Shown here one piece after another: positions 1 to 39,597 of a stretch of 64,000 nt of DNA (positions are counted from its first letter, which is position 1; every line of letters begins with the position of its first letter). Origin of the DNA: Gammaproteobacteria bacterium (lineage in GTDB: Bacteria; Pseudomonadota; Gammaproteobacteria; Steroidobacterales; PWYM01). The translations under genes were made by a program, and so were the position numbers. Under the pieces are notes generated by a model, which saw nothing but the letters and a program-made list of their open reading frames with translations, was not told the DNA's origin and searched no databases. The DNA lies in contig JAFIFN010000001.1 in NCBI GenBank assembly GCA_020832005.1, forward strand, positions 9,775 through 73,774. Direction: 5' to 3'.

Positions 1-1629
1 GGCGAGCAGGTTCTTGAGCACCTTGAGTATCGTGCCAAGTTCAAGCGTCTTGGGCACCAGGCTTTCAACGAGTTTCGGATGACTGCCGGCCAGCACATCG
101 AGGAGTTTCTGCACCTCTTCATGGCCGAGCAGTTCGTGGGCGTGCTCCTTGAGCACCCTGCTCAGGTGCGTGGCAATCACGGTGGACACATCGACCACCG
201 TGTAACCCAGCGATTGCGCCTGCTCACGGGTCGATGGCTCAATCCACACAGCATCGAGACCGAATGCCGGATCTTTCGTCGTAAGCCCTGGCACGCTGCC
301 GTAGACGCGACCCGGGTTGATCGCCAGGTCCCGGTCGGGCTGCACCTCGCCTTCGGCCAGCGGCACGCCCAGCACGCTGACCCGATACCCCGTGGGCGGC
401 AGCTCGAGGTTGTCGCGGATGTGTACGGGATGGAGCAGGAAACCGAGTTCCTGGGAGAGCTTGCGGCGCACCCCCTTGATACGTGTCATCAGGCTGCCGC
501 CCTGCGAGGCGTCTACCAGCGGAATCAATCGGTAGCCCAACTCCAGGCCGACCAGGTCGACGGCCGGCACGTCCTCCCAGGACAGCTCCCGGTCCTCACC
601 ACCGCTGAGCGGTGCCGGTGCGGCGCTTGTCGTCTCGGGCGACTCGGCGGCCTGCTGGTTGCGCCGGATCAACCAGGCCAGGCCGCCCATCAGCGCGGCC
701 AGCATCAGGAACACCGTCGCCGGCATGCCCGGCACCAGGCCCATGACGCCGATGACACCGGCGACCGTGAACAGCGCGCGCGGGTTGCTCAGCAGCTGAC
801 GGTTGACCTCCTCGCCCATGTCGCGTGCGGCAGATACCCGGGTGACGATGATGGCGGTGGCCGTGGACAGCAGCAGCGAAGGAATCTGTGCGACCAGCCC
901 GTCGCCGATCGTCAGCAGGACATAGTTCGTAGCCGCATCGCCCAGCGACATCGCGTGCGACACGGTGCCGATGATCAGGCCACCGATGATGTTGATGAAC
1001 AGGATCAGGATGCCGGCGATGGCATCGCCGCGCACGAACTTGCTGGCGCCATCCATGGAGCCGTAGAAGTCCGCCTCCTGGGCCACCTCCTCACGACGCG
1101 CCTTGGCCTCTTCCTGCGTCAGGATACCGGCGTTCAGATCGGCGTCGATGGCCATCTGCTTGCCGGGCATCGCATCCAGGGTGAAACGCGCGCTGACCTC
1201 GGAGACGCGTCCGGCGCCCTTGGTCACGACGACGAAGTTGATGATCACCAGGATCGCGAACACCACCAGACCAACCGCGTAGTTGCCCCCGATGACGAAT
1301 TCGCCGAAGGCCTCGATGACCCTGCCGGCCGCATCGGTGCCGGTATGACCGTTGAGCAGCACCACACGGGTCGATGCGATATTCAGCGCCAGACGCAGCA
1401 GCGTGGCCACCAGCAGAATGGTCGGAAACACGCTGAAGTCCAGCGGACGCGCGCTGTAGACGGACATCAGGATGACCACCAGCGCCAGAGCGATATTGAA
1501 CGTGAAAAACACGTCCAGCAGCAGCGGTGGCAGCGGGATGACCATCATGGTCAGCAGCGCGATCAGCAGCAGCGGTGTGCCCAGTCCGAGCAGTTTCAGG
1601 CGATTCCCGGGGTCTGACAGTGCGCTCAT
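1..1629 (-). CDS. flhA: Flagellar export gate protein FlhA, N-terminal ~543 codons (3' end lies beyond window start)
   Basis: Absent from the ORF track because it runs off the window. My reverse translation from ATG 1629-1627 reads MSALSDPGNRLKLLGLGTPLLLIALLTMMVIPLPPLLLDVFFTFNIALALVV...RFTLDAMPGKQMAIDADLNAG...ASKFVRGDAIAGILI, matching the FHIPEP/FlhA family. The start overlaps the flhB stop (TGATG). The listed + ORF 79-1617 is its antisense shadow. Confidence 0.93.
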   Translation of the reverse strand, partial: MSALSDPGNRLKLLGLGTPLLLIALLTMMVIPLPPLLLDVFFTFNIALALVVILMSVYSARPLDFSVFPTILLVATLLRLALNIASTRVVLLNGHTGTDAAGRVIEAFGEFVIGGNYAVGLVVFAILVIINFVVVTKGAGRVSEVSARFTLDAMPGKQMAIDADLNAGILTQEEAKARREEVAQEADFYGSMDGASKFVRGDAIAGILILFINIIGGLIIGTVSHAMSLGDAATNYVLLTIGDGLVAQIPSLLLSTATAIIVTRVSAARDMGEEVNRQLLSNPRALFTVAGVIGVMGLVPGMPATVFLMLAALMGGLAWLIRRNQQAAESPETTSAAPAPLSGGEDRELSWEDVPAVDLVGLELGYRLIPLVDASQGGSLMTRIKGVRRKLSQELGFLLHPVHIRDNLELPPTGYRVSVLGVPLAEGEVQPDRDLAINPGRVYGSVPGLTTKDPAFGLDAVWIEPSTREQAQSLGYTVVDVSTVIATHLSRVLKEHAHELLGHEEVQKLLDVLAGSHPKLVESLVPKTLELGTILKVLKNLLA

Positions 1630-7336: not shown

Positions 7337-8269
7337 TCAGGCGAAAGTATCAATGAGAGCGTAGCCGTGGACCGACTGGACTGAGCGCGCTGGTGCATCA
7401 GCCTCGGAATCCGCACCGAGCCCGCTGTCCTCGCCTGCCAAGGCGTCCTGAGTAGAATCGCTGCGCTTGCGCTGCTCATCACGCTCGCCGCCGCCCACCT
7501 CGGCGTGACCCAGATCAAGTCCCTGTTCGGCCAAGGTCTCTCGCAGTCGGGGCAGGGCATTTTCCAGTGCCTCACGCACCGCGGCATGTGGTGAGGCCAT
7601 GCTCACCTGCAGGCCGTCGCCCTCCAGCCGGATCCGGATCTCGATCGGCCCCAGGTGTTCGGGATGTACCCGCACACGGGCATCCTGGATGCCCTGTTGC
7701 GCGAACACCAGCACGCGCTGCGCCAGGGCCTGGTCGAATCCCGGCTGCTGCGGGCTCATCGCGGCACCGGCCTGGCCGACCGGAACCATCACTGCCGCCA
7801 GCCCCGTGCGCACTGCGGATCCGGCCAGGCCGGGCAGTCCTGCATCGACGCCGCCAGAGTCCCGACGCAGCAGCTGCTGGCCGAACGTCGAGGCCAGCGG
7901 GTCACCTGCTGCATGGCCGCCCAGGCGCGCAGCCGTCGCCAGCATGCCTGCATTGCGCAGCAGGCCGTCATCATCGTCAGCCTGCGCCAGTGCCTGCGAG
8001 AACTCGGCAAGTGGCAACAAGTTGCCGTCAGGCGGCATTGTCCTGCCGGCCTGGCCATCTGCTGCGTTCCTCGCGGCCAGCGCATGAACTGCCGCGCCAC
8101 CGGGCGCCGCGGTCATGACCACCGGCTGGTTGAGCGCTGCCAGCACCAGCGCGAATTCGGGATTCGCCGCGTCCACGGCCTCGTCCGCAGTCTCTGCAGG
8201 CGGGCTCGCAGGCTCACCGATCTTGGTTCCAGCCTTGAATTCGATGCCTGATCCCGTCGCTACCAGCAT
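7337..8269 (-). CDS. fliK: Flagellar hook-length control protein FliK
   Basis: C-terminal Flg_hook block VRVHPEHLGPIEIRIRLEGDGLQVSMASPHAAVREALENALPRLRETLAEQGLDLGHAEVG. I place the start at ATG 8269 (MLVATGSGIEF; AGGAG upstream) because a sigma54 promoter lies inside the longer ORF listed to 8452. Confidence 0.85.
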   Translation of the reverse strand: MLVATGSGIEFKAGTKIGEPASPPAETADEAVDAANPEFALVLAALNQPVVMTAAPGGAAVHALAARNAADGQAGRTMPPDGNLLPLAEFSQALAQADDDDGLLRNAGMLATAARLGGHAAGDPLASTFGQQLLRRDSGGVDAGLPGLAGSAVRTGLAAVMVPVGQAGAAMSPQQPGFDQALAQRVLVFAQQGIQDARVRVHPEHLGPIEIRIRLEGDGLQVSMASPHAAVREALENALPRLRETLAEQGLDLGHAEVGGGERDEQRKRSDSTQDALAGEDSGLGADSEADAPARSVQSVHGYALIDTFA

Positions 8270-8320: not shown

Positions 8321-8336
8321 AGCAAGTCCTGTGCCA
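8321..8336 (-). promoter_or_regulatory. sigma54 -24/-12 promoter of fliK: TGGCAC-aggac-TTGCT
   Basis: Reverse complement of agcaagtcctgtgcca, in the fliJ-fliK gap ~55 nt upstream of ATG 8269. Confidence 0.8.
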
Positions 8337-8351: not shown

Positions 8352-8804
8352 TCAGTGCGCGTTGCCAGCGGCCAGACGGCGTGCGGACGCCTGCAGAGCA
8401 AGATCGTCCTGCTGACGCTGCTCTGTGCGACGTGCGTCGAGCGCGGCGCCATCCATACGCTTCTCGATCAGTTTCTCCATCGCCTGTCGCTGCATCCGCG
8501 CTGACAACCAGCGCGCGCGGGCAGCCTCAAGGCGTTGTCTGCATGCCGAGACCTGACGGCGTTGAGCCTCCAGCGTCTGTTCAAGTTGCGACAGGAACTG
8601 GTGCTGACCGCGCAGGCGACGAAGATCCACCGTGCCCGTCAGGGTGGATGCGTGGTACTCATCCACATAGATCTCTACCGCGTGGAGACGCTCCTCCTCT
8701 TCGGCCAGCTTGGTCTGCGCGATGCGCAGCGCCTCACCCGCCTGACGCTCCTCTTCACGCTTCATACCTGCGACGACTTCAAGTTGAGCGTGCTGACGGG
8801 TCAT
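8352..8804 (-). CDS. fliJ: Flagellar export chaperone/stalk protein FliJ
   Basis: 150 aa, all-helical and Q/R/E-rich coiled coil. Overlaps the fliI stop (ATGA) at the canonical fliI-fliJ position. Confidence 0.85.
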   Translation of the reverse strand: MTRQHAQLEVVAGMKREEERQAGEALRIAQTKLAEEEERLHAVEIYVDEYHASTLTGTVDLRRLRGQHQFLSQLEQTLEAQRRQVSACRQRLEAARARWLSARMQRQAMEKLIEKRMDGAALDARRTEQRQQDDLALQASARRLAAGNAH

Positions 8805-10198
8805 TCCCTGGACTCCTGTGTGGGTGTTGCGCCGGGCTCGCCAAGCAGGCGGGCCAGTGCGTGCATGCTTTCGTGCACGCCGACCGCCTCCTCGGGCAGC
8901 TGCGTCAGGAACGCTTCCATGCGCGGATGAAGCTCGATAGCCTGATCGACCGCGGCATCAGTGCCACGTCGGTAGGCGCCCACTGTGATCAGATCGCGAT
9001 GCTGCTCGTAGCAGGCGGTGATGCGCCGAAAGCTTTGCGCAAGTTCGCGCTGCGCCGGGCTGACCATGGCATTCATGACACGGCTGATGGAGGCCTCGAC
9101 GTCGATGGCCGGGTAGCGGCCACGCTCGGCAATGCGCCGCGACAGGACGATATGGCCATCCAGCACCGCACGTGCGGCATCGGCGACCGGGTCCTGAACA
9201 TCATCGCCTTCCGCCAGAACCGTATAGATGCCGGTGATCGAGCCGCCCGTATTGGAGTTGCCGGCGCGTTCGAGCAACTGCGGGAGTTTTGCAAATACCG
9301 ACGGCGTGTAGCCACGGGTCACCGGCGGCTCGCCGATGGCCAGGCCGATCTCGCGCTGCGCCTGCGCGTAACGGGTCAGGGAGTCCATCAGCAACAGCAC
9401 ATGGCGACCCTGTTCGCGAAAATACTCGGCGATCGCGGTGGCCGACTGTGCCCCCTGCAGGCGCATCAGGGGCGGCGCATCCGCGGGGGCGACAACGACC
9501 ACCGCGCGGGCAAGGCCGTCGGGCCCGAGTATTTCGTGGATGAACTCGTTGACCTCGCGGCCACGCTCGCCAATCAGGCCGACAACGATGACGTCGGCAG
9601 CCGTATGCCGCGCCATCATCCCCAGCAGCACGCTCTTGCCCACACCACTGCCGGCGAACAGGCCCATGCGCTGACCACGGCCGATGGCAAGCAGCGAATT
9701 GATGCTGCGCACGCCAACGTCCAGAATCTGACGGACCGGCTCACGCTGCAGCGGATTGATGGTGCGCCCCGACAGCGGCATGCGCTCGCGACAGCGCGGT
9801 GAGGGCGCCGAATCCAGTGGCTGGCCGGTCGGGTCGATCACCCGGCCGAGCAGCATGTCGCCGACCGGCATCTGCCGGGCACGCGACACCGGGCGCACGC
9901 GCGCCTGCGGCGTCAGCCCGCCGATCTGGCCGACGGGCATCAGGAACATCCGGTCACCAGCGAATCCCACCGCCTCGGCCAGAACAGGCTCGTGGCCACG
10001 ACCCAGGATGCGGCAGCGGCCGCCCACCGGCATCTCGCAGCCTACGGCCTCCAGGGTCATCCCGACCATGCGTACCAGGCGACCCTCGGCGACCAGGTTC
10101 AGCTCCTGTGTCGCGGCCTCCTGCCAGCCACCGATACGCGAGCGAAGCATACTGCGGCGGCGCTGCGTCACTGCGGTTTCAGTCACCGGCACGATCAT
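8801..10198 (-). CDS. fliI: Flagellum-specific ATPase FliI
   Basis: Walker A GSGVGKS, Walker B VLLLMDSLTR, F1/T3SS ATPase fold. The ORF track starts at 10249. ATG 10198 (MIVPVTE) has a better upstream GGGA and a shorter overlap with fliH, so the start is uncertain by ~17 codons. Confidence 0.93.
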   Translation of the reverse strand: MIVPVTETAVTQRRRSMLRSRIGGWQEAATQELNLVAEGRLVRMVGMTLEAVGCEMPVGGRCRILGRGHEPVLAEAVGFAGDRMFLMPVGQIGGLTPQARVRPVSRARQMPVGDMLLGRVIDPTGQPLDSAPSPRCRERMPLSGRTINPLQREPVRQILDVGVRSINSLLAIGRGQRMGLFAGSGVGKSVLLGMMARHTAADVIVVGLIGERGREVNEFIHEILGPDGLARAVVVVAPADAPPLMRLQGAQSATAIAEYFREQGRHVLLLMDSLTRYAQAQREIGLAIGEPPVTRGYTPSVFAKLPQLLERAGNSNTGGSITGIYTVLAEGDDVQDPVADAARAVLDGHIVLSRRIAERGRYPAIDVEASISRVMNAMVSPAQRELAQSFRRITACYEQHRDLITVGAYRRGTDAAVDQAIELHPRMEAFLTQLPEEAVGVHESMHALARLLGEPGATPTQESRE

Positions 10199-10877
10199 CG
10201 TCCCGCGGTACCGCATGCACATACTCCGGCCCGTCGACGCGTTCGTCACCGAGCAGGCGCGCGGCGATGGCCGTCATGCGTGTCTCCACACTGGCATCCA
10301 CCAGCGAGACATCGGTTTCGACCCGCGTGCCGCCCCGGCTGAGAGTGAGGTCGTCGTGCAGACGAATGGTCCGCTCCAGGGTCTCTGCAGGCAGCGCCTC
10401 GCGGACCAGGCGTACATCCTCGGGATGCAGATGGATATGGACGCGGGTTTCCGACATCGGCAGGGCGGCCATGGCCTCGCGCACGACGCGTACGATCTCA
10501 CCGGGCTCGCGCGACAGCTCCCGGCGGACGAACTGGCGTGCAATGACCAAGACGAGCTCACCGAGTTGCTCAAGCAGCGGCTCATCCAGCACGCCTGCCA
10601 GCGGATCTATGCTCTCCAGCAGGTCTTCGAGTCGCTGAGCCGCATCATTCATCTGCAGCCGTCCTGCGGCGCGACCTTCCTCCAGACCCCGACGGTAACC
10701 TTCTTCATGGGCCTGTGCTTCAATATCGCCGATGCGCTCGGCCGTCAGTGGCATGGAGAGCACCCCGGGCTGAGAGCCTGCGGACATGCCGGACATGTCA
10801 GGAGCATGCCAACGCCGCACCGTTGTGCCTTGCGCCGGAGCAGCGCCTGTCATGGTCTGTGATTCAGACGAAGTCAT
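10179..10877 (-). CDS. fliH: Flagellar assembly protein FliH
   Basis: 232 aa. Central EAQAHEEGYRRGLEEGRAAG repeat-like helix and a C-terminal FliH domain. Lies between fliG and fliI. Confidence 0.85.
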   Translation of the reverse strand: MTSSESQTMTGAAPAQGTTVRRWHAPDMSGMSAGSQPGVLSMPLTAERIGDIEAQAHEEGYRRGLEEGRAAGRLQMNDAAQRLEDLLESIDPLAGVLDEPLLEQLGELVLVIARQFVRRELSREPGEIVRVVREAMAALPMSETRVHIHLHPEDVRLVREALPAETLERTIRLHDDLTLSRGGTRVETDVSLVDASVETRMTAIAARLLGDERVDGPEYVHAVPRDDDRAGD

Positions 10878-11889
10878 CGCCGCCCTTGCCTCCTACCGCG
10901 ATCTCGCCTTCCTCTGACAGGCGTCTGACGATGCCCAGAATCTCCTTCTGTGCTGCCTCGACCTCCGAGACGCGGGTGGGGCCGCGCATCTCGAGGTCCT
11001 CCTGCAGACTTTCCGCGGCGCGCTTGGACATGTTGCGCAGGATCAGAGCCTTGATCTCCGCCGTGGCCCCCTTCAACGCAATCACCAGTTGATCGCTGGA
11101 GACCTCACGCAGCAGTCGCTGGATGCTGCGGTCATCGAGATCCAGCAGGTTTTCGAAGGTAAACATCAATTCCTGGATTCGCCCGCCGAGACTCTCGTCA
11201 GAGGCCTTGATGCTGTCGATAATGGCGGCCTCGGCCGAGGAATCCATCAGGTTGAGAATGTCCGCGGCACGCTTGAGGCCACCCACGACGCTGGTCTTGG
11301 ACGCAGAAGTGCCCGAGAACTGACGTTCGAGAATCTGGTCAAGTTCCTGCAACGCACTGGGATGAATGCTCTCCAGCGATGCGATCCGCATGATCACATC
11401 GCTGCGTATACGATCAGGGAGAAACCCCAATACTTCAGCCCCGTGATCACTGTCCAGATAGGACACGACAATAGCCATGATCTGCGGATGTTCATCGCGG
11501 ATCATGTCTGCCACCGCGCGGCCGTCCATCCACTTCAGCGATTCAAGACCACTGGAGTTACCGCCGACGAGGATGCGGTCGATCAGACTTCGCGCCCGGT
11601 CCTCTCCGAGTGCCTGATTCAGCACCTTTCGCAGGTATTCATCACTTCCCACACCGATCGGCGTCTGATCCTCCACCACCGCGGTGAACTCGGCCACCAC
11701 ACGCGAGAGCTGCGTACGACTGATTGCCGGCATCGCGGCCATCGCCGTACCGATACTCTGTACTTCCTTCGGGCCCAAGTGTTTGAGCACCGCCGAGGCA
11801 GTATCTTCGCCCAGGGTCATCAGGAAGATCGCAGCGCGATCCACGCCACTGATGACCGCCTGACCTGATGATTGCGCTTTACTTGCCAT
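10864..11889 (-). CDS. fliG: Flagellar motor switch protein FliG
   Basis: 341 aa. GVDRAAIFLMTLGEDTASAVLKHLGPKEVQ and C-terminal RLLREVSSDQLVIALKGA...RNMSKRAAESLQEDLE torque-helix region. Confidence 0.95.
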   Translation of the reverse strand: MASKAQSSGQAVISGVDRAAIFLMTLGEDTASAVLKHLGPKEVQSIGTAMAAMPAISRTQLSRVVAEFTAVVEDQTPIGVGSDEYLRKVLNQALGEDRARSLIDRILVGGNSSGLESLKWMDGRAVADMIRDEHPQIMAIVVSYLDSDHGAEVLGFLPDRIRSDVIMRIASLESIHPSALQELDQILERQFSGTSASKTSVVGGLKRAADILNLMDSSAEAAIIDSIKASDESLGGRIQELMFTFENLLDLDDRSIQRLLREVSSDQLVIALKGATAEIKALILRNMSKRAAESLQEDLEMRGPTRVSEVEAAQKEILGIVRRLSEEGEIAVGGKGGDDFV

Positions 11890-13558
11890 CCTGGTTCATC
11901 CATGTGCGTACGACCTGGGCCACCAGCCGCGGATCATCCGTGGCCACCTTTCGTACCCTGTTGAGTTCATCATCCAGCGAGCCACCGGCGCCTCCACGGT
12001 CAGACAGGCTCTGAAACTCATCCCCGGGCTGACCAAGCTGACCGGCTGCCCGGGCGCTCCCTGGCGGCTCCGGCAATCCGGGCGCGCCGCCCGCCATCGC
12101 AGGCATGGCTCGACCGGGCGCCGGCGCAGGAAGCTGCACGAGTTGTCGCAGCGTGGGCCGCAGCACCAGCAGGATCAGCAGCAACAGTCCCAGTGCAGCC
12201 ATGCCCTGGCGGGCGAGATCACGGATCCAGGGCTCCTCCCACAGGGGACGTGCTTCCAGCGCCTCGGGCTCGGCCACTTCACGAAACGAGGCATTGACGA
12301 CATTGATTCGGTCGCCGCGCGCCTCATTGAAGCCAACAGCCTCGCCGACCAGCGACTGCAGATAGGCCATTTCAGCCGCATCCCGGGGCAGACGCAGGCG
12401 TTCGCCACCCTCACCGCGGCCGATCCGGTCATCGACAACCACTGCAACAGAGATCCGTGACAGCGTGGCGGGTGCCTGGCGGATATGGCTGACCTCGCGG
12501 TCGACCTCGAAGTTTCGGGTGCTGCGCGAACTGCGTGAGGCCGGGTCGCCGGTGCGCTGTTCGTCGTTCATCAATCCCTGTGCCGGCATCACCACCGTGG
12601 CGGCACCAGGCGGCTGATTGGTCAGCGCTCCGGGCACACCCCCGGTTACCGGATTGCGACTCTCCTCCTCGCTGGTCTGCTCGCTGCGAAGCACGATGCG
12701 CTCAGGATCGAAGCTCTCGCGAGTGCTTTCGATCTGGGTAAAGTCGATGTCGGCGGTCACCTGCACGCGCATGCCGTCAGGCCCGACCAGCGGCGCGAGA
12801 ATATCCTCGATGCGCTCCCGATAGGCATCCTCAAGGCGACGGGTGTAGTCCAGGTGCTGCGCGGTCAGCCCTCCGGCTGCCGCACCGGCCATCTGGCTGA
12901 GCAACTGCCCACGCTGGTCGATGACAGTGACACGCTCGGCTTCGAGCTCAGGGACACTGGAAGCGACCAGGTGCACGATACCGGCGACCTGGGCGTCATC
13001 GAGCATGCGCCCGGGATGCAGGTGAACGATGACCGAGGCGCCCGGCTTGATGCGGTCGCGGACGAATACGGACTGTCGTGGCAGCGCCAGGTGTACGCGT
13101 GCCCGCTCAACGCTGTTCAGCGTCGTCACCGAGCGCGCAATCTCGCCTTCCAGCGCCCGCTGGTAGCGGGCCGTCTCGACCATCCGGCTGGTGCCGATGC
13201 CACTGTCCTGGTCGAGCAACTCGAAACCCACGCCATCGGCGCGCGGCAAGCCCTCTGTGGCCAGGTTCAGGCGCGCCTCGGCAACGCGTGTGGCCGGCAC
13301 CATCAGGGCACCACTGCGCGCATCGAGTCGATGCGGAATATTCTGCCGACTGAGCACCGTCACGGCCTGGGCGATGTCGCGCTCAGCCGCACCAGACAGC
13401 AGCACCTGGTAGCCGGGCCGCAGCCCCCACATCACCACGGTGACCGCAAGGGCAAGCACCACGGCCAGACCGAGCACCGTGCCGAACTGGCGTTGTGCCG
13501 GCAGTCGACCCAGGCCTGCAAACTGTTTACTGATCGTCCGGGGCAGATTGTCCGCCAT
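11879..13558 (-). CDS. fliF: Flagellar MS-ring protein FliF
   Basis: 559 aa. N-terminal TM, YscJ/FliF ring-building motifs (LATEGLPR..GFELLD) and a second TM near the C-terminus. Confidence 0.95.
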   Translation of the reverse strand: MADNLPRTISKQFAGLGRLPAQRQFGTVLGLAVVLALAVTVVMWGLRPGYQVLLSGAAERDIAQAVTVLSRQNIPHRLDARSGALMVPATRVAEARLNLATEGLPRADGVGFELLDQDSGIGTSRMVETARYQRALEGEIARSVTTLNSVERARVHLALPRQSVFVRDRIKPGASVIVHLHPGRMLDDAQVAGIVHLVASSVPELEAERVTVIDQRGQLLSQMAGAAAGGLTAQHLDYTRRLEDAYRERIEDILAPLVGPDGMRVQVTADIDFTQIESTRESFDPERIVLRSEQTSEEESRNPVTGGVPGALTNQPPGAATVVMPAQGLMNDEQRTGDPASRSSRSTRNFEVDREVSHIRQAPATLSRISVAVVVDDRIGRGEGGERLRLPRDAAEMAYLQSLVGEAVGFNEARGDRINVVNASFREVAEPEALEARPLWEEPWIRDLARQGMAALGLLLLILLVLRPTLRQLVQLPAPAPGRAMPAMAGGAPGLPEPPGSARAAGQLGQPGDEFQSLSDRGGAGGSLDDELNRVRKVATDDPRLVAQVVRTWMNQDGK

Positions 13559-13604
13559 CTCAGGAAGCTTCCTTGTCAGCGTGTTTCAGGGCAGTGCAGG
13601 TCCA

Positions 13605-13925
13605 TCAGACCTGCATGTTCATGATTTCCTGGTAAGCCGCGACCAGGCGATTTCGCACCTGTGTCACCGCTTCGAACTGCAGACTGGATTTCTGCATCGC
13701 CACCATGACATCGGGCAGGCTGACCTGGGCATCGCCGGCCACGAAGCGGGTTGTCAGCTCGCCCGAGTGCTGTTGCGCCGCATTGACCTGGTCGAGCGAC
13801 TGCTTGAGCAGGGTTGCGAACTCCGCACCCTGGGCCGCACCACTCGCGGCGGCCGGGCCTTCACCGGCACGCGCGGACAGCGCGCGCATCTGAGCCAGTA
13901 CCTGCTGTATCTGCATGTCACTCAT
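13605..13925 (-). CDS. fliE: Flagellar hook-basal body complex protein FliE
   Basis: 106 aa. C-terminal [37 protein letters not shown]. The start ATG overlaps the stop of the upstream activator gene (ATGA). Confidence 0.93.
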
Positions 13926-14914
13926 GGCAGTGCCACTCCCATGTCACGTAGCCGCGCCATCTTGTAGCGCAAGGTGCGTGGGCTGATGCCCAGCCGGTCG
14001 GCCGCGGGCTTGCGGCGACCCTCTTCAGCGCGCAGCGCCGCGCGAATCAACTCGCCTTCCGACACCCGCAGCGAGGCCTCAAGATCCAGCGCCTCACCGT
14101 CATCGCCGACGCCCGCGAGCTGCTGCGTCTCGCCGCCATCGATGCGCAGATCGGCCGGCTCAATGACGCCACCGGTGTGGAGGATCAGCGCCCGCTGCAT
14201 GACGTTTTCCAGTTCCCGGACGTTGCCCGGCCAGTCATGCCGACGCAGGTAGTCACAGGCTGCCGTGCTGAGTGCGGGCACCTTGCGATCGGCCGCATGA
14301 CGCTGCAGCAGATGCGCGGCCAGCGCGATGATGTCATCCGGACGGTCCCGCAACGCCGGGACCCGCAGGGGGAACACATTCAACCGGTAGTAGAGGTCCT
14401 CACGCAGCACCCCTTCGCCGACGGCCTCGCGCAGCTGGCGATTCGACGTGGCAATGACGCGTACGTCCACACGCCGGGCACTGGCGGCTCCCAGGCGCTC
14501 GACTTCGCGCTCCTGGAGCACGCGCAGCAGCTTGGCCTGCAGGGTAATCGGCATCTCGGTGATCTCATCGAGCAGCAGCGAGCCGCCGCTGGCCTGCTCG
14601 AACTTGCCGGCACGCGCATCGCTTGCCCCGGTGAAAGCACCCTTTTCATGACCGAACAAGGTCGCTTCGAGCATGGGCTCGGGGATCGCCGCACAGTTGA
14701 CGGCGATGAAGGGCCCGGACTTGCGGCTCGAGGCGGCATGGATGAAGCGCGCGTAGACTTCCTTGCCCACGCCGGATTCGCCCGTAAGCATGACGGTCAC
14801 ATCGGCCGCCGCGACGCGCTCGGCCAGCGCGAACATCTCGCGACTGCGTGCGTCCAGGGCGATCGGGAGATCACGATGGCCACCAGGGCTCGCCAGCTTG
14901 TCGGCTTCGGTCAT
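13922..14914 (-). CDS. sigma54-dependent transcriptional activator without a receiver or other N-terminal regulatory domain (FleT-like); AAA+ core plus Fis-type HTH
   Basis: 330 aa. Only ~25 residues precede the AAA+ core (Walker [15 protein letters not shown] sigma54-contact loop, Walker B LLLDEI). C-terminal [22 protein letters not shown]. Own sigma54 promoter upstream. Translationally coupled to fliE. Confidence 0.85.
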
Positions 14915-14962
14915 GCGTCCGAACTCCTGCGGGTCGGTATGAAGGACTGTCGCAGGAGTAAA

Positions 14963-14978
14963 AGCAAAACCCGTGCCA
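14963..14978 (-). promoter_or_regulatory. sigma54 -24/-12 promoter of the activator-fliEFGHIJ operon: TGGCAC-gggtt-TTGCT
   Basis: Reverse complement of agcaaaacccgtgcca, ~50 nt upstream of ATG 14914. An AT-rich block (14981-15030) lies just upstream and contains an IHF-like AATCAGTAAATAA. Confidence 0.8.
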
Positions 14979-15077
14979 TAGCACGTTATTTACTGATTAA
15001 TATGGGAATTTCTTATTTTCCGCGCGGCCAGGACGTTGTGGCCGTCAAGCTTCTGACGCGCAGACGGAGCAGGATGT

Positions 15078-16598
<1,521 letters not shown>

Positions 16599-16711: not shown

Positions 16712-16727
16712 CGCAGGTCCATTGCCA
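16712..16727 (-). promoter_or_regulatory. Weak sigma54-like element upstream of fleQ: TGGCAA-tggac-CTGCG
   Basis: Reverse complement of cgcaggtccattgcca. GG-N10-GC spacing is right but both hexamers are degenerate. fleQ/flrA are usually sigma70-driven in other genera. Confidence 0.3.
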
Positions 16728-17804: not shown

Positions 17805-17820
17805 AGCAAAATTCGTGCCA
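17805..17820 (-). promoter_or_regulatory. sigma54 -24/-12 promoter of the fliT-PilZ-like operon: TGGCAC-gaatt-TTGCT
   Basis: Reverse complement of agcaaaattcgtgcca, in the fliS-fliT gap ~85 nt upstream of ATG 17718. Confidence 0.8.
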
Positions 17821-20351: not shown

Positions 20352-21527
20352 TTAACGCAACAGGGCCAGCACGTTCTGCGGAGCAGCGTTGGCCTGGGCA
20401 AGCATGGCCACGCCAGCCTGCTGCAGCACCTGCGCCCGGGTCAGCGCCGCCGTCTCGGCAGCGAAATCCGTGTCGCGGATGCGGCTGCGTGAGGCGGCCA
20501 GGTTCTCGCTGTTGGTCTGCAGGTTGGCGATCACAGACTCGAAGCGATTCTGGATGGCACCCATCTGGGCGCGTACGCTGTTGATCTCGGTCAGGGCGGC
20601 ATCAGCAATCCCGAGCGCGCGCTGGGCACCACCGAAGGTCGAGATGTCGATATCACTGACGAACTGCTCATCGCCAGCAGCCGGGGCCACAAAGGTACCT
20701 GTCGCGCCGGTGGCGGCGAAGGTGATCGCGTCTTCACCGGCCTGGATGGAGCTGACGTCGATCCCGCCGGCAGCCGTGCCCGCCTCGGCAGATACGCCTG
20801 ACTGAGCGGAGACCGAGTTGATCGCACTGACGAGAGCGTCGCGCAGGGCGGCCTGTGTGGCAGCGGCGTCCGTGGTCACGGTGCCACCACCCGAGGTGGA
20901 CGTGATCGCGGTCACCGACACGTCGTCGACCGCAACACCGTTGACCGTGATCCCGGTCACCGAGGTCGCGCCCGAAGCTGCAACTGCGATGCTGCCGTTG
21001 GCAAACATGGCTTCGCCGAGCCGGTCGCCACGCGCGTCGGCATCGATCTCGACCGAGATCAGCTGACCGGCGTTGGCGCCGACCTGGAACGCAGCACCAG
21101 TGAACGAGCCGTCGAGCAGCCGGGTACCGTTGAACTCGGTCTGCTGGGCAACACGCGTGATCTCCTGGATCAGCTGCTGGGCTTCCGCATTCAGGGCAGC
21201 GCGGTCGCTGGCGGAGTTCGTGGCGTTGGAGGCCTGCACGGCCAACTCACGGATGCGCTGCAGGTTGTTGCCAACCTCGCCCAGTGCACCTTCAGCGGTC
21301 TGTGCCAGCGAAATGCCGTCGTTGGCGTTGCGCACGGCGACGTTCAGACCACGAATCTGCGTGGTGAAACGCTCAGAGATGGCGAGGCCTGCCGCGTCAT
21401 CCTTGGCGCTGTTGATACGCAGACCTGAGGACAGGCGCTGCAGAGAAACACCCAGCGCACTCTGCGAGGTGCTCAGGTTGCGCTGTGCGTTCAGCGACAG
21501 CACGTTGGTATTGATTACCTGTGACAT
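20352..21527 (-). CDS. fliC: Flagellin
   Basis: Start at ATG 21527 (MSQVINTNVLSLNAQRNL; AGGAG RBS). Conserved D0/D1 N- and C-termini (...AAETAALTRAQVLQQAGVAMLAQANAAPQNVLALLR). The central variable region is rich in S/T/A/G. The ORF-track start 21551 is rejected. Confidence 0.96.
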   Translation of the reverse strand: MSQVINTNVLSLNAQRNLSTSQSALGVSLQRLSSGLRINSAKDDAAGLAISERFTTQIRGLNVAVRNANDGISLAQTAEGALGEVGNNLQRIRELAVQASNATNSASDRAALNAEAQQLIQEITRVAQQTEFNGTRLLDGSFTGAAFQVGANAGQLISVEIDADARGDRLGEAMFANGSIAVAASGATSVTGITVNGVAVDDVSVTAITSTSGGGTVTTDAAATQAALRDALVSAINSVSAQSGVSAEAGTAAGGIDVSSIQAGEDAITFAATGATGTFVAPAAGDEQFVSDIDISTFGGAQRALGIADAALTEINSVRAQMGAIQNRFESVIANLQTNSENLAASRSRIRDTDFAAETAALTRAQVLQQAGVAMLAQANAAPQNVLALLR

Positions 21528-21633
21528 TTCCGTACTCCTGGTACTCGTCAAATTTACATTCAGTTGGCCGCCGCAAGAGGCGGGGTCTCATCCGGCGGCA
21601 TGAATGTGCCGGTTGCAAAATGCATATCGGCGC

Positions 21634-21765: not shown

Positions 21766-23328
21766 TCAATGCGCGTCCGGCAGCATCGCCAGTATTCTTT
21801 GCCGGGCGCGCTCGAAGGCGTGCGCGAACAGTGGTGCCTGCGCCTGATAGGCGTCCGTGAGGCAACCGAATGCCGCGGTAACCTGAACTCTGGCCTCGTC
21901 GCTGCCCGCCATGCCGACCACCTCCGGACGCACGCTGCGCGCAGCGTCGTTGGCGCACATCGCATCCCAGTCCAGACCATGCACCTCAAGCATGCGCCGC
22001 ACACAGCTGTCAGGATCGGCCACCAGGTCTTCGTAGGACAGTACGCTCACGCGTTCGGGAAACAGCGCCTGCCAGTGCGCAGCCAGGCGCTCATACACAA
22101 GTATGTATTCGGCGATCAGGTCCACATCCCAGGCGTAGGGATGAGGCTGCTCGAAGTACTTCAGGTAGATGGCCAGCGCGTTGGCAAAGTGCTCACGGCG
22201 ACAGATCACCAGTCTTGTCTGAGGATTGAGCATCATGAGCATGCCGGCGTAGATGATGTTGCCAGGAGTCGTCACCAGATGAGTGACAACGCCCGGGGCG
22301 GGTGCCTCGCCCCATGCAGCCTCCAGCAGGGTTCCAAGCCGGTCCATCGCCATCGCATCGAGGTTGCGTAGCGAGTCGGGGTAGGCGGCCAGCAGTCCTT
22401 GGCCTGATTTGCGCAGCACCTCGTCGATGACATCGCGCTCGCCCCAGCCACGGATCGCCGGATGCGCCCCGAGCGCGCCTTCCAGCAGGCTCTTGCCGGC
22501 ACGCGGGGGGCCCAGCACCAGGGTGAGGCCCCTGTCTGATCGAGTCCGAACGCATCCGGCGGCGACGAATTCTGGCTGAAACACGTCGATGACACGCGTC
22601 GCGAGGCGAATCAGCAATCCACCGCGCAGGCGCTCGACCTCGGTGCGTTCATGTTCACACATCAAGCGGTTGCCTGCCTGACAGGCCTTGAACGAAGCAA
22701 GCGAATCCCCACCATCCTGGTACATCTTGCTCAATGCGAACTGCAACATTGCGCGCTCCCGAAGAGACAGCCGATCGCGCTGCAGCAGCTTGCGCAGCTG
22801 CTTGATCTGAGCCCCTGCGCCGGCGAAATGCCGGGTCTGCGAGTATCGAAGCCAAAGCTCGGCATCGTCGCGCCGCACGGCCAGCAGCGCCGCCAGAAAA
22901 GCACTCGCCTCCTCCATGCGTCCCAGCGCCCGCAGAGCCATTGCATACAGCCTCATCGCCTGCTGGCTCTCGGGGTTCAGCCGCATTGCCTCACGCAGCG
23001 CGGCGGCGGAAGCTTCGTAACGACCCAGTTCGTAGAACGTACTTCCGACCAGTTCGAATACGCCCGCATCGGCGTCCGGAAGACTGAGCAGCTGCGCGGC
23101 GTACTGCAGCGCCGTGTTGTGCATGCGCAGTTGCAGGGACAGCAGCGTCAGCGACGTCAGCGCCCCGCGATTCTGGGGGTCGCGCTCAAGCACCTGGCTC
23201 AACAACTCTACTGCATCGAGCTTGCGGTCCTCGTCAACAGCCTGGCTGGCTTCAGTGAGCAGGGAGCGAAGCTCTGATGCCGGTGCCGCTGCCGCTGCCG
23301 ACAGGCGTGGCCGGGTCGCCGCCATCAT
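21766..23328 (-). CDS. TPR-repeat / sulfotransferase-domain fusion protein (candidate flagellin-modifying enzyme)
   Basis: 520 aa. The N-terminal ~200 aa are TPR-like (AVELLSQVLERDPQNRGAL; YELGRYEASAAALREAMRLNPESQQA; LGRMEEASAFLAALLAVRRDDAE). The C-terminal half has a PAPS 5'-phosphosulfate-loop-like LVLGPPRAGKSLLEGALGAHP, then VICRREHFANALAIYLKYF and YEDLVADPDSCVRRMLEVHGLDWD, as in TPR-containing sulfotransferase families. The ATG overlaps the flgL stop (ATGA). Confidence 0.7.
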   Translation of the reverse strand: MMAATRPRLSAAAAAPASELRSLLTEASQAVDEDRKLDAVELLSQVLERDPQNRGALTSLTLLSLQLRMHNTALQYAAQLLSLPDADAGVFELVGSTFYELGRYEASAAALREAMRLNPESQQAMRLYAMALRALGRMEEASAFLAALLAVRRDDAELWLRYSQTRHFAGAGAQIKQLRKLLQRDRLSLRERAMLQFALSKMYQDGGDSLASFKACQAGNRLMCEHERTEVERLRGGLLIRLATRVIDVFQPEFVAAGCVRTRSDRGLTLVLGPPRAGKSLLEGALGAHPAIRGWGERDVIDEVLRKSGQGLLAAYPDSLRNLDAMAMDRLGTLLEAAWGEAPAPGVVTHLVTTPGNIIYAGMLMMLNPQTRLVICRREHFANALAIYLKYFEQPHPYAWDVDLIAEYILVYERLAAHWQALFPERVSVLSYEDLVADPDSCVRRMLEVHGLDWDAMCANDAARSVRPEVVGMAGSDEARVQVTAAFGCLTDAYQAQAPLFAHAFERARQRILAMLPDAH

Positions 23329-24558: not shown

Positions 24559-26451
24559 TTAGCGCCGGACGGCCGCGAGCAGCGTGTCAAACATTGAACC
24601 TGCCACCGCGATGACCTGGGCACTGGCCTGGTAGGCCTGCTGGAAACGCAGCAGGTTCGCGGCCTCCTCGTCGAGGTTGACGCCCGAGATGTTCTCGCGC
24701 TGGGCGCGAGCATCAGCGAGCATTCGTCCCTGCACCTCTGCGTTGATCGAGGCACGCCGTGTCTTTACGCCGACATCGGCCACCAGTTCCGCATAGCCCT
24801 CGGAGAGGCTTGTTGTGCCGCCGGCCAGGGTGCGCTGCCTGGCCAGGCCTGCCAGCGCCAGGGCGCCGCGGTTATCGCCGACACCGCCGGCATTGTCGCG
24901 AACCTCGAAGCGATCACCCTCTGCGGGTGTCCCCCGAATCACCGTGCGCCAGCCATTGAGCTCGATGGTGGTGTCGCCAGACGGATCCGGAGAGAAACTC
25001 GTTCCGCCGACCACGAACTGCCCGCCGGTAAACTCGATATCGATGGGGTTGCGCAGGTCCGCGGCAGCGGGATCGACAATGCTGATCTCCCGCAGGCTCG
25101 CCGCACCGGTGTTCTGGGCCGCCGCCTCAGCGCGCACGGGCAATGCTGCGGCAACCGCCCTGGGATCGGTGATGCGCACGCTCAGATCGCCCGCCACCTG
25201 CAGGGGGCGCAACAGGAAGCTGTCCCCGCGTTGCGCGCCGCTCACGCCCGAGAGATCCAGACTCAGACCATCGAAATCCAGGCTGTCGCCTGGAGCCAGG
25301 GTAGCCAGACGCTCGCCATCTGCCAGCCTGCGCAGCACCCAGTTGTCGCCATCGAAGCGCAGCTGGTAGTCGCTGGCCTCCAGCGCACCGACATCGCTGA
25401 TGGCCAGATCCGGAATACCGCTGGCCACGTTGCCGAGGTTGGCATACACGCGCGGATCGGGACGCTCGAAAAATGCGCCACCGGCCAGACCTCGAAGATC
25501 CATGCCTGCGGCGTGCTGCTCGTTGAAACTGTCGACCAGCGACACGGCAATACGGCCAAGCCCGTTGCTGGCCGGGTCGAACAGGGTATCGCGAAGATCC
25601 AGCAGTGCGCCGAGCTCCCCGCCAGTCATGAACTCGGTGGCAATCACCGTGGCCGAACCGTTGCGAAACCCGATATCCAGTCGGCCCGGATCCGCGCCCA
25701 TCGCCTGGGCAAACAGCCGCGTTTGCTCGAAGCCCACCACAAGGGCCTGGCCCCGACCGATATAGATGTTGACGCTGCCATCGGACTGCTCAAGAGTCTT
25801 GACCGAGGTCAGTGATGACAGATCGCGAATCAGCTCGTCGCGGCGATCCAGCAGGTCATTGGGATCGCGCCCGCCGCTGCGCCCCCGTGCCTCGACGATC
25901 TCGCGGTTGAGCTGCGCGATGCTCGTGGCCAGCTGGTTGATCTCGTCTACGGTCCCGCTGATGCGACCATTGGCAATGCTGCGTTGGTCCTCAATGCGGC
26001 CTTCCAGCTGAGCGAAGCGATCGGTCAGCGACTGCGCCTGGCTGATCAGCTGCTGGCGGGCGGCCGTCGAGGTCGGATCGGTGGCGACGTCCTCAAGCGC
26101 TGCGAAGAACTGACTCAGTGCCGGCGCGAGCCCGGAGTTCGGATCGGCCAGCAGCGTGTCGAGCCGGCCGGCGAACTCCGCGTAGGTGCGCTCGTAGCCT
26201 GCACCCGACAGATTCATGCCCAGGCGCGCCTCGACGAATTGATCGACGACGCGGCGCACACCAGTGGTGGTCACACCCGTACCCAGAGAGCCGAAGCCGG
26301 AGTTCAGCGGCTGCGAGGTGCCCAACTGCAGCTGCTGGCGGCTGTAGCCTTCCGTGCCAACATTGGCGATGTTGTGCCCGGTGACCTGCAGGGCGCGCTG
26401 ATACGCCAGCAACGCCGAAGTGCCGACACCGAAAATGCCGCCTCCGCTCAT
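24559..26451 (-). CDS. flgK: Hook-filament junction protein FlgK (HAP1)
   Basis: 630 aa. N-terminal GVGTSALLAYQRALQVTGHNIANVGTEGYSRQ and C-terminal VNLDEEAANLLRFQQAYQASAQVIAVAGSMFDTLL. Confidence 0.95.
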   Translation of the reverse strand: MSGGGIFGVGTSALLAYQRALQVTGHNIANVGTEGYSRQQLQLGTSQPLNSGFGSLGTGVTTTGVRRVVDQFVEARLGMNLSGAGYERTYAEFAGRLDTLLADPNSGLAPALSQFFAALEDVATDPTSTAARQQLISQAQSLTDRFAQLEGRIEDQRSIANGRISGTVDEINQLATSIAQLNREIVEARGRSGGRDPNDLLDRRDELIRDLSSLTSVKTLEQSDGSVNIYIGRGQALVVGFEQTRLFAQAMGADPGRLDIGFRNGSATVIATEFMTGGELGALLDLRDTLFDPASNGLGRIAVSLVDSFNEQHAAGMDLRGLAGGAFFERPDPRVYANLGNVASGIPDLAISDVGALEASDYQLRFDGDNWVLRRLADGERLATLAPGDSLDFDGLSLDLSGVSGAQRGDSFLLRPLQVAGDLSVRITDPRAVAAALPVRAEAAAQNTGAASLREISIVDPAAADLRNPIDIEFTGGQFVVGGTSFSPDPSGDTTIELNGWRTVIRGTPAEGDRFEVRDNAGGVGDNRGALALAGLARQRTLAGGTTSLSEGYAELVADVGVKTRRASINAEVQGRMLADARAQRENISGVNLDEEAANLLRFQQAYQASAQVIAVAGSMFDTLLAAVRR

Positions 26452-33838: not shown

Positions 33839-33854
33839 TGCAAGCGTCATGCCA
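33839..33854 (-). promoter_or_regulatory. sigma54 -24/-12 promoter of the flgBCDE... operon: TGGCAT-gacgc-TTGCA
   Basis: Reverse complement of tgcaagcgtcatgcca, ~40-50 nt upstream of ATG 33802. Confidence 0.7.
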
Positions 33855-33971
33855 AGAACGGGACTTATTGGGGCGACGAGCGCTTTACACGCGTCGAAAG
33901 GGTGGATGAGCGTTGCAAACGGCAAACGACTGCCGCGCGGTGGCAAGCGATTGCCGCTACAGCAGGGTCCG

Positions 33972-38672: not shown

Positions 38673-39569
38673 TCACTCGGCTGCGCACTCCTGTGTAGCC
38701 AAGGCCAGGATGTCATCGCCAACGCTTGGATCCAGCCCGAGCGCGTGCATGTCCAGCGGGTTCGCCGGTGCGAGATCGGCCGCAAAGCTGCCAGGCAGTC
38801 GGCCAGAAAGCTGGTCAGCCAAGGCGATGATCCGCGCCAGGAGACCCGACGCATCGTCGCTGAATTGCGCCTCGTGATGACCTGCTACCAGGGAGACAGT
38901 CCAGTCGGGAAACTTCCAGGTCCGCAGCGCCGCCGCCCCGACCTGTGCGTGATCCATGCCAAGATGCGCACGCTCACTCGCAAGATAACCGTCGGGCTCA
39001 TGAGACACGGCAGTCACCACGTCGCAGAAGCCCTGGCGATCGAGCTGGATCATCACGATATGACCGACATCATGCAGCAACCCCCCAAGAAAGGCGCGCT
39101 GTGGGTCAACCCCCGGCACGTGCAGCGCAAGGCGGCGCGCGACAGCGGCCGTGGTCCTGGCATGCATCCAGAGGCAGCGGGCGTCGAAACGCTCGCACAA
39201 CCTGCCCTGTTTGAAAAGCCGCCTCAGCGTCGCGGCGTAAATGAGGTTCCGCAGGGCTTCGAATCCAAGCACGCGCAGCGCCTGGTGCAGGGACTCGACC
39301 TGCCGGGAAAGCCCGTAGAACGGTGAATTCGCCACTGCCAGCACATTGCTGGACAAAGCCACATCCTGCTTGAGCAGTTGCAGGACACGAAGATCCGAAA
39401 TATCCGGATCACGCATCTCCGCCATCAGCTGGGCTGCGAAATCGCCGATCGTCGGCAACCGCCTTGCACGGAAGTTACCAGTGCTGTCAAACGCTGCGGC
39501 CAGACCCTGTCGCGGTGACCGGCGAGGCGTTTCCGCTGGCGCCTGGCTACCGGGAAGCTCCCCATTCAT
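38673..39569 (-). CDS. HDOD domain protein (paralogue 2)
   Basis: LLKQDVALSSNVLAVANSPFYGLSRQVESLHQALRVLGFEALRNL...GGLLHDVGHIVM is the HDOD pattern. ATG 39569 (GGAGGCGGAAG upstream) is preferred; the ORF-track start 39620 would overlap the upstream paralogue by 23 nt. Confidence 0.8.
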   Translation of the reverse strand: MNGELPGSQAPAETPRRSPRQGLAAAFDSTGNFRARRLPTIGDFAAQLMAEMRDPDISDLRVLQLLKQDVALSSNVLAVANSPFYGLSRQVESLHQALRVLGFEALRNLIYAATLRRLFKQGRLCERFDARCLWMHARTTAAVARRLALHVPGVDPQRAFLGGLLHDVGHIVMIQLDRQGFCDVVTAVSHEPDGYLASERAHLGMDHAQVGAAALRTWKFPDWTVSLVAGHHEAQFSDDASGLLARIIALADQLSGRLPGSFAADLAPANPLDMHALGLDPSVGDDILALATQECAAE

Positions 39570-39597
39570 ACCACTTCCGCCTCCACATCCTGGTTTA

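Follow-up and report, generated by a model that had tools for sequence, protein, structure and literature searches.

Among reference genomes of polar flagellates with FlhF and FlhG, 19 of 21 carry a flagellum-associated two-component system, Xanthomonas campestris being the noted exception, and in Vibrio cholerae and Pseudomonas aeruginosa this system needs the MS ring, the rotor and the export apparatus for its activity (PMC7064773). The P. aeruginosa regulator FleR is positively regulated: its phosphorylated receiver touches the neighbouring AAA+ domain and stabilizes the heptamer (Sahoo et al., PMC10696123). Another arrangement is known from Rhodobacter sphaeroides, which has a FleQ- and RpoN2-dependent fleT-fliEFGHIJ operon (PMC7277832, PMC11999139). 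FleT has neither an N-terminal domain nor a helix-turn-helix (HTH), is inactive alone and works in FleQ/FleT hetero-oligomers (PMC3162934, PMC10084136, PMC11999139). In this work we have analysed a 64-kb stretch of DNA, hereafter the window, from a gammaproteobacterium of the order Steroidobacterales (contig JAFIFN010000001.1, positions 9,775 to 73,774), and specifically the gene between fleQ and fliE in its flagellar cluster. The gene encodes a sigma54 enhancer-binding protein (EBP) of the FleR/FlrC type which has no receiver domain, and we are confident that this receiver-less protein works as a FleR-type activator and is encoded in an EBP-fliEFGHIJ operon.

The open reading frame of the EBP gene has 330 codons from an ATG start, with AGGAG 9 nt before it. 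The protein consists of an AAA+ core, a lid (AAA_lid_14 at residues 189-258) and a C-terminal Fis-type HTH, and besides the Walker A and GAFTGA motifs listed in Table 1 it has an intact Walker B (D116 and E117). Only 44 residues stand ahead of Walker A, and Pfam gave no match to Response_reg (PF00072), so that the original prediction of a protein which has no receiver but does have an HTH (HTH_8 at residues 282-321) is borne out. Could a receiver be hidden by a wrongly called start? This is impossible, since there is an in-frame TAA 25 codons upstream of the ATG and the gap to fleQ is 163 bp, while a receiver would need about 120 residues; no upstream in-frame start exposes one. When the HTH core was compared with that of P. 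aeruginosa FleR, 18 of 20 residues were identical by our count from the two sequences, and the 11-residue recognition helix is the same. The top NCBIfam model for the protein is FlbD, although its score of 353 bits is far below the curated cut-off of 750.

The window protein is a member of a large family: among its 120 best homologues (59-95% identity) more than 90 have a length of 320-350 residues and lack PF00072, and receiver-bearing FleR proteins (436-463 residues) appear among these 120 only at about 63% identity and below. In 23 aligned family members Walker A, Walker B, the R171/R177 region, R233 and the recognition helix are invariant, as is GAFTGA save for F94 (at least 90% conserved); the first 17 or so residues are variable. 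The gene is also present on JGI and Logan metagenome contigs, and five further loci (L005 and L088-L091; 62-86% identity) have the same gene order as the window, fliC-flaG-fliD-fliS-(fliT-like)-tPilZ-fleQ-EBP-fliE-F-G-H-I-J-K. The family loci include one from a cultured bacterium, Thioalkalivibrio sp. XN279 (Ectothiorhodospiraceae). In all six loci a sigma54 motif with 0-2 mismatches stands 47-51 bp before the EBP start, and the gap between the EBP gene and fliE is -4 to 39 bp, which leaves no room for a promoter; the ATGA overlap of the window is found again in L088, and the remaining loci have gaps of 12-39 bp. The ratio of nonsynonymous to synonymous substitutions (dN/dS) was 0.11 at dS 0.75 when the gene was compared with its closest relative, in L088, and ranged from 0.11 to 0.29. 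The EBP gene is under purifying selection and is no remnant. The automatic JGI label for the short family members, 'two-component system response regulator FlrC', is wrong for this architecture, and in our full-text literature searches we met no account of FleR/FlrC proteins without a receiver. We also observed that in L005 (8739-9830) and L090 (5734-6837) the FleQ beside the EBP is itself short, 363-367 residues and without the FleQ N-terminal domain, so that two 'naked' AAA+-HTH activators stand side by side.

To follow the descent of the gene we sampled 80 loci of GTDB genomes, which do not amount to the set of its nearest relatives, and reconstructed the homologous open reading frame and its neighbours in each. 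Sampled loci with about 155 residues ahead of Walker A had tblastn matches to a receiver, and most of them (at least 59 loci) also had FleS immediately upstream; loci with both include Pseudomonas, Vibrio, Legionella, Alishewanella, Woeseiaceae and Nitrosomonas. Sampled loci with fewer than 90 residues in this position had neither a receiver nor a FleS match. Since loci with a receiver mostly have FleS and loci without one have none, the receiver and the kinase are present or absent together. In L005, L039, L051 and L060 fleQ lies directly 5' of the receiver-less gene, and L053 is cut at its 5' end. In trees of 260-264 AAA+ cores (neighbour-joining only, 100 bootstraps) the proteins at the FleR/FlrC position, including that of the window, split from the FleQ proteins with bootstrap values of 83-95, so that alignment and phylogeny place the protein in the FleR/FlrC orthogroup and not with FleQ. 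It falls in a clade of 74 sequences which are almost exclusively receiver-less (support 55). The receiver-less proteins of L039/L051 and of L060 branch apart from this clade, which suggests that the receiver was lost more than once.

Other comparisons point in the same direction. The best PDB match was the AAA+ domain of V. cholerae FlrC (4QHS, 300 bits), followed by FleQ (250 bits) and PspF (180 bits), and identity to the cores of FleR and FlrC is about 54-63%. The conserved part of the protein begins at the equivalent of residue 131 of P. aeruginosa FleR, that is, at the start of the AAA+ domain and at the boundary of the published truncation FleR(129-473). The position of the gene between fleQ and fliE is likewise that of fleR/flrC in the Pseudomonas, Vibrio and Legionella loci, although P. 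aeruginosa has a gap of 246 bp between fleR and fliE and here the gene has become part of the fliE operon. Judged from these sequences, the gene is best explained as a descendant of FleR/FlrC whose lineage lost the receiver and the FleS/FlrB kinase together. By its apparent descent the protein is a FleR/FlrC orthologue; by its architecture it is no two-component response regulator.

The absence of the kinase agrees with the gene content of the window. As originally predicted, no kinase stands between fleQ and fliE: the EBP gene adjoins fleQ across the 163-bp gap, in which nothing is encoded, and there is no FleS/FlrB kinase directly upstream. The visible flagellar cluster extends from flhB (1629) to motAB (42275), about 1.6-42.3 kb, and includes cheV, flgA, a gene for a methyl-accepting chemotaxis protein and two HDOD genes. 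Within it we found no histidine kinase, no stand-alone receiver and no other regulator gene. The search for a FleS-like kinase covered the 64-kb window, in which the flagellar cluster is seen in part, without flhA, flhF, flhG and fliA. Within this scope there is no FleS, and the only kinase is a PAS-HisKA-HATPase-REC hybrid at 61936-63993 on the minus strand, 20 kb past the cluster and among housekeeping genes (kdsB, lpxK, msbA, exbBD, comEC, lolCDE and mfd). This unrelated kinase was also the only match of FleS in tblastn, at 62.5-63.2 kb and with 27% identity over the catalytic core only. The source of the window is an uncultured gammaproteobacterium; its Mfd is 100% identical to a protein from an NCBI 'Gammaproteobacteria bacterium' metagenome-assembled genome, and identity to the closest genera with names (Natronospira, Thiohalobacter, Lentisalinibacter and Woeseia) is no more than about 60%.

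How might the gene be expressed? The original prediction gave it a perfect sigma54 promoter of its own, and the site proved to be an exact match and one of an enriched class: exact TGGCAC-N5-TTGCW occurs 5 times in the window against 0.14 expected, and 0 of 100 shuffled sequences gave 5. The five sites all lie in flagellar intergenic DNA, 5' of fliL, fliK, the EBP gene, the fliT-like gene and flgA. With a further sigma54-type site (TGGCAT...TTGCA) 5' of flgB and a weak candidate 5' of fleQ, six promoters and one weak candidate are supported instead of the eight that had been proposed. The gap between fleQ and the EBP gene contains no sigma70-like promoter and no convincing terminator. The AT-rich block next to the -24 element is there, but its supposed likeness to a binding site of integration host factor (IHF) is doubtful, as by our reading it matches the IHF consensus poorly; comparable blocks are found in L005 and L091, at the fliL promoter of the window and at flgB and flgF of P. 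aeruginosa. Further upstream, 66 bp from the sigma54 motif (79 bp from start to start), is a palindrome GTCA-N6-TGAC, the sole intergenic exact copy in the window. It has a form like that of the FleQ consensus of P. aeruginosa, GTCaNTAAAtTGAC (PMC6120874, PMC8125075), and is kept at the EBP promoter in three of the five related loci, and imperfectly in a fourth; its counterparts are CGTCAGATCCTTGACG in L088, GCGTCAGAATTCTGACGC in L090 and the imperfect copy in L089. Over the whole window GTCA-N6-TGAC occurs 4 times where 0.94 would be expected, a number also reached by 2 of 100 shuffled sequences and not significant by itself, and it is from the position and conservation of the box, not from this count, that we infer an action of FleQ at the EBP promoter. 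The earlier proposal that FleQ fires this promoter first is consistent with such a box.

At its other end the EBP gene overlaps fliE by ATGA, and the genes from there to fliJ overlap or lie close to one another, which agrees with the single EBP-fliEFGHIJ unit that had been proposed. The two genes had also been described as translationally fused. The overlap stands, but the open reading frames are in different frames and the term should be translational coupling. The gene calls for fleQ and fliEFGHIJ were taken from an identical contig (L001). Some sites were also seen around fleQ: an exact sigma54 promoter at 17805-17820 (minus strand) 5' of the fliT-like and tPilZ genes, just upstream of fleQ, with a half FleQ-box, TTCTGACGCC, about 30 bp downstream of it, and a weak sigma54-like motif at 16713-16727 (minus strand), 115 bp before fleQ. 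From the sites at 17805-17820 and 16713-16727, fleQ may be partly sigma54-dependent or autoregulated.

More questions concern the promoters on which the activator itself would act. In the intergenic DNA 67-101 bp upstream of the flgB promoter is a pair of palindromes which can be written as GGCAA-N4-TTGCC, with no terminator-like hairpin at the pair. The 5' part of fliK, a gene whose sigma54 promoter is conserved in L005, L089 and L090, contains another pair, spaced in the same way. Exact pairs at 21-bp spacing occur twice in the window and were absent from 300 Markov simulations. With at most one mismatch the fliK pair is kept in L005 (17020-17054), L089 (12138-12172) and L090 (13876-13910) and in nine receiver-bearing FleR loci (L011, L012, L016, L020, L024, L028, L030, L035 and L066). 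The pair encodes a conserved peptide, GxxLPxxGxxLP, and since the same DNA does both we dropped the idea of a clean downstream enhancer. Of the 25 cases of the Leu codon in this pair, 21 have TTG, where the background is 21.5% (p = 5e-11), a bias which argues for selection on the DNA besides the peptide. It is plausible that a DNA element, possibly a downstream enhancer, is embedded in the fliK coding sequence. V. cholerae FlrC reportedly binds enhancers downstream of the flaA and flgK start sites.

In P. aeruginosa, FleR is a direct activator of flgB and flgF (PMC10696123). Upstream of these two genes (flgF, 21392-21608, and flgB, 24605-24856, of L093) we found clustered GGCAA/TTGCC inverted repeats, followed by an AT-rich block and after it a sigma54 promoter, and these repeats may be the FleR enhancer; our literature searches found no published binding motif for FleR. 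In the window, half-sites of this type are enriched at flgB and fliK; the promoters of fliL, the fliT-like gene and flgA have none, and that of the EBP gene has a single distant copy. This distribution and the identical recognition helix argue for a FleR-like, DNA-binding class III activator, one whose targets, with GGCAA/TTGCC repeats at flgB, are likely the same as those of FleR and FlrC. It does not favour the earlier claim that the protein co-activates all the other sigma54 promoters, as FleR-type half-sites are found only at flgB and fliK.

Table 1. Positions in the window of the EBP gene, its control region, its operon and its candidate targets.
Feature	Position	Strand	Basis or remark
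Receiver-less FleR/FlrC-type sigma54 EBP, 330 aa: AAA+ core, lid, Fis-type HTH	13922..14914	-	Open reading frame, Pfam, tree
Sigma54-interaction AAA+ domain, aa 22-183	14366..14851	-	Pfam PF00158 Sigma54_activat, E 2e-67
Fis-type HTH, C-terminal, aa 282-321	13952..14071	-	Pfam HTH_8, E 1e-12
Walker A GESGVGKE, aa 45-52	14759-14782	-	Sequence
GAFTGA motif, aa 92-97	14624-14641	-	Sequence
Sigma54 promoter (-24/-12) TGGCACGGGTTTTGCT, 48 bp upstream of EBP ATG	14963..14978	-	Exact consensus
AT-rich block (36 nt) immediately 5' of the -24 element; bent DNA or possible IHF site	14985..15020	-	Sequence
FleQ-box-like palindrome GTCA-N6-TGAC, GTCAAGCTTCTGAC on the plus strand, GTCAGAAGCTTGAC in gene orientation	15044..15057	.	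Pattern and conservation
ATGA overlap of EBP stop and fliE start, 4 nt	13922..13925	-	Coordinates and sequence
fliE-fliF-fliG-fliH-fliI-fliJ, unit with EBP gene	8352..13925	-	Pfam, NCBIfam; genes overlapping or close
fliE	13605-13925	-	Overlaps EBP stop by 4 nt
fleQ: FleQ N-terminal domain, AAA+, HTH; presumed class I activator of EBP promoter	15078..16598 (frame open to 16691)	-	Pfam FleQ, Sigma54_activat, HTH_8; 506-aa gene call; FleQ clade
Two GGCA-N6-TGCC palindromes 21 bp apart, GGCAAGCGATTGCC and GGCAAACGACTGCC; candidate enhancer for EBP	33921..33955	.	Pattern
Sigma54-type promoter of flgB TGGCATGACGCTTGCA, likely class III target	33839..33854	-	One mismatch; 53 bp before flgB start
Sigma54 promoter of fliK, likely class III target	8321..8336	-	Exact consensus in fliJ-fliK gap
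Second tandem GGCA-N6-TGCC pair, 21-bp spacing, within fliK 5' part	8013..8047	.	About 275-310 bp downstream of fliK promoter

Taken as a circuit, the sites would work as follows. FleQ would bind the GTCA-N6-TGAC box and fire the promoter of the EBP gene, and the activator would be made along with the proteins of the MS ring, the rotor and the export ATPase. Through its own HTH the activator would then bind the GGCAA-N4-TTGCC enhancers upstream of flgB and probably inside fliK, and would drive transcription of the rod, hook and hook-length genes from their sigma54 promoters. As there is no receiver to phosphorylate, the output would be set by the amount of the protein, that is, by the transcriptional cascade, and not by a kinase which senses assembly of the MS ring, rotor and export apparatus. 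We hold this full mechanism of FleQ-driven, autonomous and dosage-controlled class III activation to be somewhat better than an even chance.

The doubtful part is autonomy. The original prediction called the EBP constitutively active and signal-blind, which was an assumption, and the nearest experiment gave the opposite result (PMC10696123). Several points weigh against the mechanism as we propose it. The ATPase of FleR(129-473) is only about 3-fold above that of unphosphorylated FleR, and a strain with this truncation is aflagellate and non-motile with low expression of flgB and flgF, even with the S150F substitution (PMC10696123). The window protein is, as far as sequence can tell, the natural equivalent of this truncation. 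It has Ala at the position of S150 in FleR, whose substitution we take to be analogous to NtrC S160F, and we saw no obvious compensating substitution. The single receiver-less clade is weakly supported (bootstrap 55), with relationships within the FleR group left unresolved in the tree; the fliK sites are confounded by the coding constraint on the peptide; and it is possible that FleQ is the binder of the GGCAA-N4-TTGCC sites. We also considered whether the residue at the S150 position compensates for the lost receiver, and found Ala or Ser there in receiver-less proteins, which is uninformative.

Other observations make an autonomous protein easier to accept. The receiver-less FlgR of C. jejuni is said to be active without its kinase. 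The entry 4QHS of the FlrC AAA+ domain holds 14 chains, and the isolated domain of V. cholerae FlrC forms heptamers (PMC10696123), so that self-assembly is possible for such a core. It has also been considered that a higher protein concentration might suffice to push FleR toward the oligomer (PMC10696123). The receiver of P. aeruginosa FleR being indispensable (PMC10696123), the receiver-less family must accomplish the assembly step in some other way: it must have gained receiver-independent assembly, or use dosage, or use a partner, either FleQ or a trans-acting regulator.

If the partner is FleQ, the EBP would be a FleT-like co-activator which works only in mixed rings and redirects FleQ from promoters of class II to those of class III, as happens with FleQ/FleT in R. 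sphaeroides. The original prediction had indeed called the protein FleT-like, and the parallel in gene order with the R. sphaeroides fleT-fliEFGHIJ operon is real (PMC7277832): in both cases the sigma54-dependent fliEFGHIJ operon begins with the gene for a further flagellar EBP that has no recognised sensory domain. Since receiver-less P. aeruginosa FleR does not function by itself (PMC10696123), a partner could also provide the ring stabilization that is lacking. The short FleQ next to the EBP in L005 and L090 (363-367 residues) further recalls the FleQ of R. sphaeroides, which has 366 residues and no N-terminal domain. However, FleT lacks a DNA-binding domain and needs FleQ, whereas the window protein keeps its HTH, which is invariant, under selection and would be needless if FleQ bound the DNA; it does not share the absence that defines FleT and, by that definition, is not a FleT. 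The two types of sites are moreover split by promoter, GTCA-N6-TGAC at the EBP gene and GGCAA-N4-TTGCC at flgB and fliK.

The relationship to FleT was examined by proxies only, as the R. sphaeroides FleT sequence was not in our comparison. R. sphaeroides FleQ groups with the short FleQ of three SAR116 loci and of the Octadecabacter arcticus plasmid pOA238_118 (bootstrap 98), and the proteins at the fleT position of the Octadecabacter plasmid and the SAR116 loci were therefore chosen as proxies. They have about 396 residues, with a 125-residue N-terminal region without Pfam match, an AAA+ core and no HTH; the N-terminal region was rejected as a degenerate receiver (hhalign probability 0.8%). 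On the plasmid (L087, 12626-15041) and in SAR116 and other alphaproteobacterial metagenome-assembled genomes (L074, L083 and L085) the clusters are of the fla1 type: a short fleQ is divergent from the gene for the EBP of about 396 residues, which stands directly before fliE. In Octadecabacter the EBP stop overlaps the fliE start in the ATGA manner. These proteins are probably FleT orthologues, abundant in marine metagenomes. They too fall inside the FleR/FlrC orthogroup, which may be counted in favour of the co-activator, but they form a separate clade there (bootstrap 76, rising to 95 when a Qipengyuania plasmid protein is included) with the opposite architecture, and this clade is not sister to that of the window, the deep nodes being unsupported. 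The Qipengyuania citrea protein (L086, plasmid plas1, 6809-8334; Sphingomonadales) has 388 residues with an N-terminal tail of about 65 residues, AAA+ and HTH; its gene overlaps fliE by 4 nt, and it groups with the alphaproteobacterial fleT-position clade (bootstrap 95). It looks as if separate lineages have trimmed FleR-derived activators in their own ways, and as if the window protein and the proteins of the FleT type are parallel outcomes. Of the term FleT-like, then, the operon position and the absent N-terminal domain can be kept, but not the domain architecture or the place in the tree, where the protein stands, within the FleR/FlrC orthogroup, among receiver-less gammaproteobacterial proteins and not next to the proxies. 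In the same way, a native version of the FleT circuit is favoured by the short FleQ of L005 and L090 and disfavoured by the architecture and the proxy tree.

We think a FleT-like co-activator unlikely, although it and the autonomous mechanism are not mutually exclusive. A stricter form, in which a receiver-less FleR would depend on mixed rings with FleQ for any assembly and would be the DNA-binding counterpart and possibly the precursor of the FleQ/FleT pair, seems to us quite improbable. If it were true, the receiver-less family would be a natural solution to the assembly defect of the engineered receiver-less P. aeruginosa FleR, and a widely conserved kinase-sensed checkpoint would have been replaced by a kinase-free circuit.

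Could the checkpoint have been kept and moved to another protein? By analogy with PspA-PspF, HrpV-HrpS, FleN-FleQ and FliX-FlbD, the EBP might be held by an anti-activator or helped by a co-activator, and this partner might sense the MS ring or the export apparatus. In its AAA+ core, HTH and short N-terminal tail the protein resembles the type Ic activators PspF, HrpR/HrpS and LafK (Francke et al. 2011, PMC3162934), of which LafK is also a flagellar regulator; the likeness to PspF is one of architecture, not of descent (180 bits against 300 for FlrC). Sensor-less EBPs are commonly controlled by a partner (PMC10084136), as FlbD is by FliX in Caulobacter (PMC7064773), and FlbD is also the best NCBIfam match here, though at 353 bits against the cut-off of 750. 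Coupling to and co-expression with fliE, fliF and fliG would set the EBP beside candidate partners. However, nothing like the PspA or HrpV which restrain PspF and HrpS is evident at the window locus, the conserved synteny contains no partner gene specific to receiver-less loci, and the cluster has no stand-alone receiver or other regulator gene. The tPilZ and fliT-like genes were rejected as specific partners, as both also occur in receiver-bearing loci. We consider a displaced checkpoint rather unlikely. That the gene is a decaying fleR remnant left by deletion of fleS and the 5' end of fleR is highly improbable, for although its boundary fits a simple 5' truncation and P. aeruginosa FleR engineered to an equivalent truncation does not function (PMC10696123), the low dN/dS (0.11 at dS 0.75), the catalytic motifs and HTH conserved over 60-95% identity, the more than 90 homologues of equal length, and the gene's own start codon, AGGAG and sigma54 promoter, conserved at a fixed distance, all speak against a truncated pseudogene.

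Some further genes of the cluster deserve mention. A gene for a tetratricopeptide repeat (TPR)-sulfotransferase (21766-23328, minus strand) lies between flgL and fliC, is kept in L088 and may encode an enzyme that modifies flagellin. At the cluster edge two tandem HDOD/HD-domain genes (38673-40521, minus strand) adjoin motAB. On the other side, an open reading frame of 512 codons (79-1617, plus strand) without Pfam match takes the place that flhA has relative to flhB in Pseudomonas-type clusters; in DNA of such high GC content it may be spurious.

What does this arrangement mean for the flagellar hierarchy? The window shares with FleR of P. aeruginosa and FlrC of V. cholerae the orthogroup and the recognition helix, and differs from them in having neither a receiver nor an adjacent FleS/FlrB kinase. 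With Xanthomonas campestris, where FleQ and RpoN2 act, it shares a polar-flagellum cluster without a FleS/FleR-type phosphorelay and with a tPilZ gene near fleQ (PMC7064773), but unlike Xanthomonas it keeps a FleR-derived activator and hence two EBP tiers. The arrangement looks like an intermediate between the Pseudomonas and the Xanthomonas types. The family appears to have kept the second activator tier and to have discarded the phosphorelay, and a widespread group of uncultured gammaproteobacteria seems to assemble its polar flagella with the usual two-component checkpoint missing. A FleR family without receiver and kinase is thus a natural experiment on whether the phospho-checkpoint is dispensable for polar flagellation. 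It bears on how the core of a positively regulated EBP becomes independent of its receiver, and on how flagellar hierarchies simplify from the Pseudomonas toward the Xanthomonas type or are rewired to an arrangement like that of FleQ and FleT.

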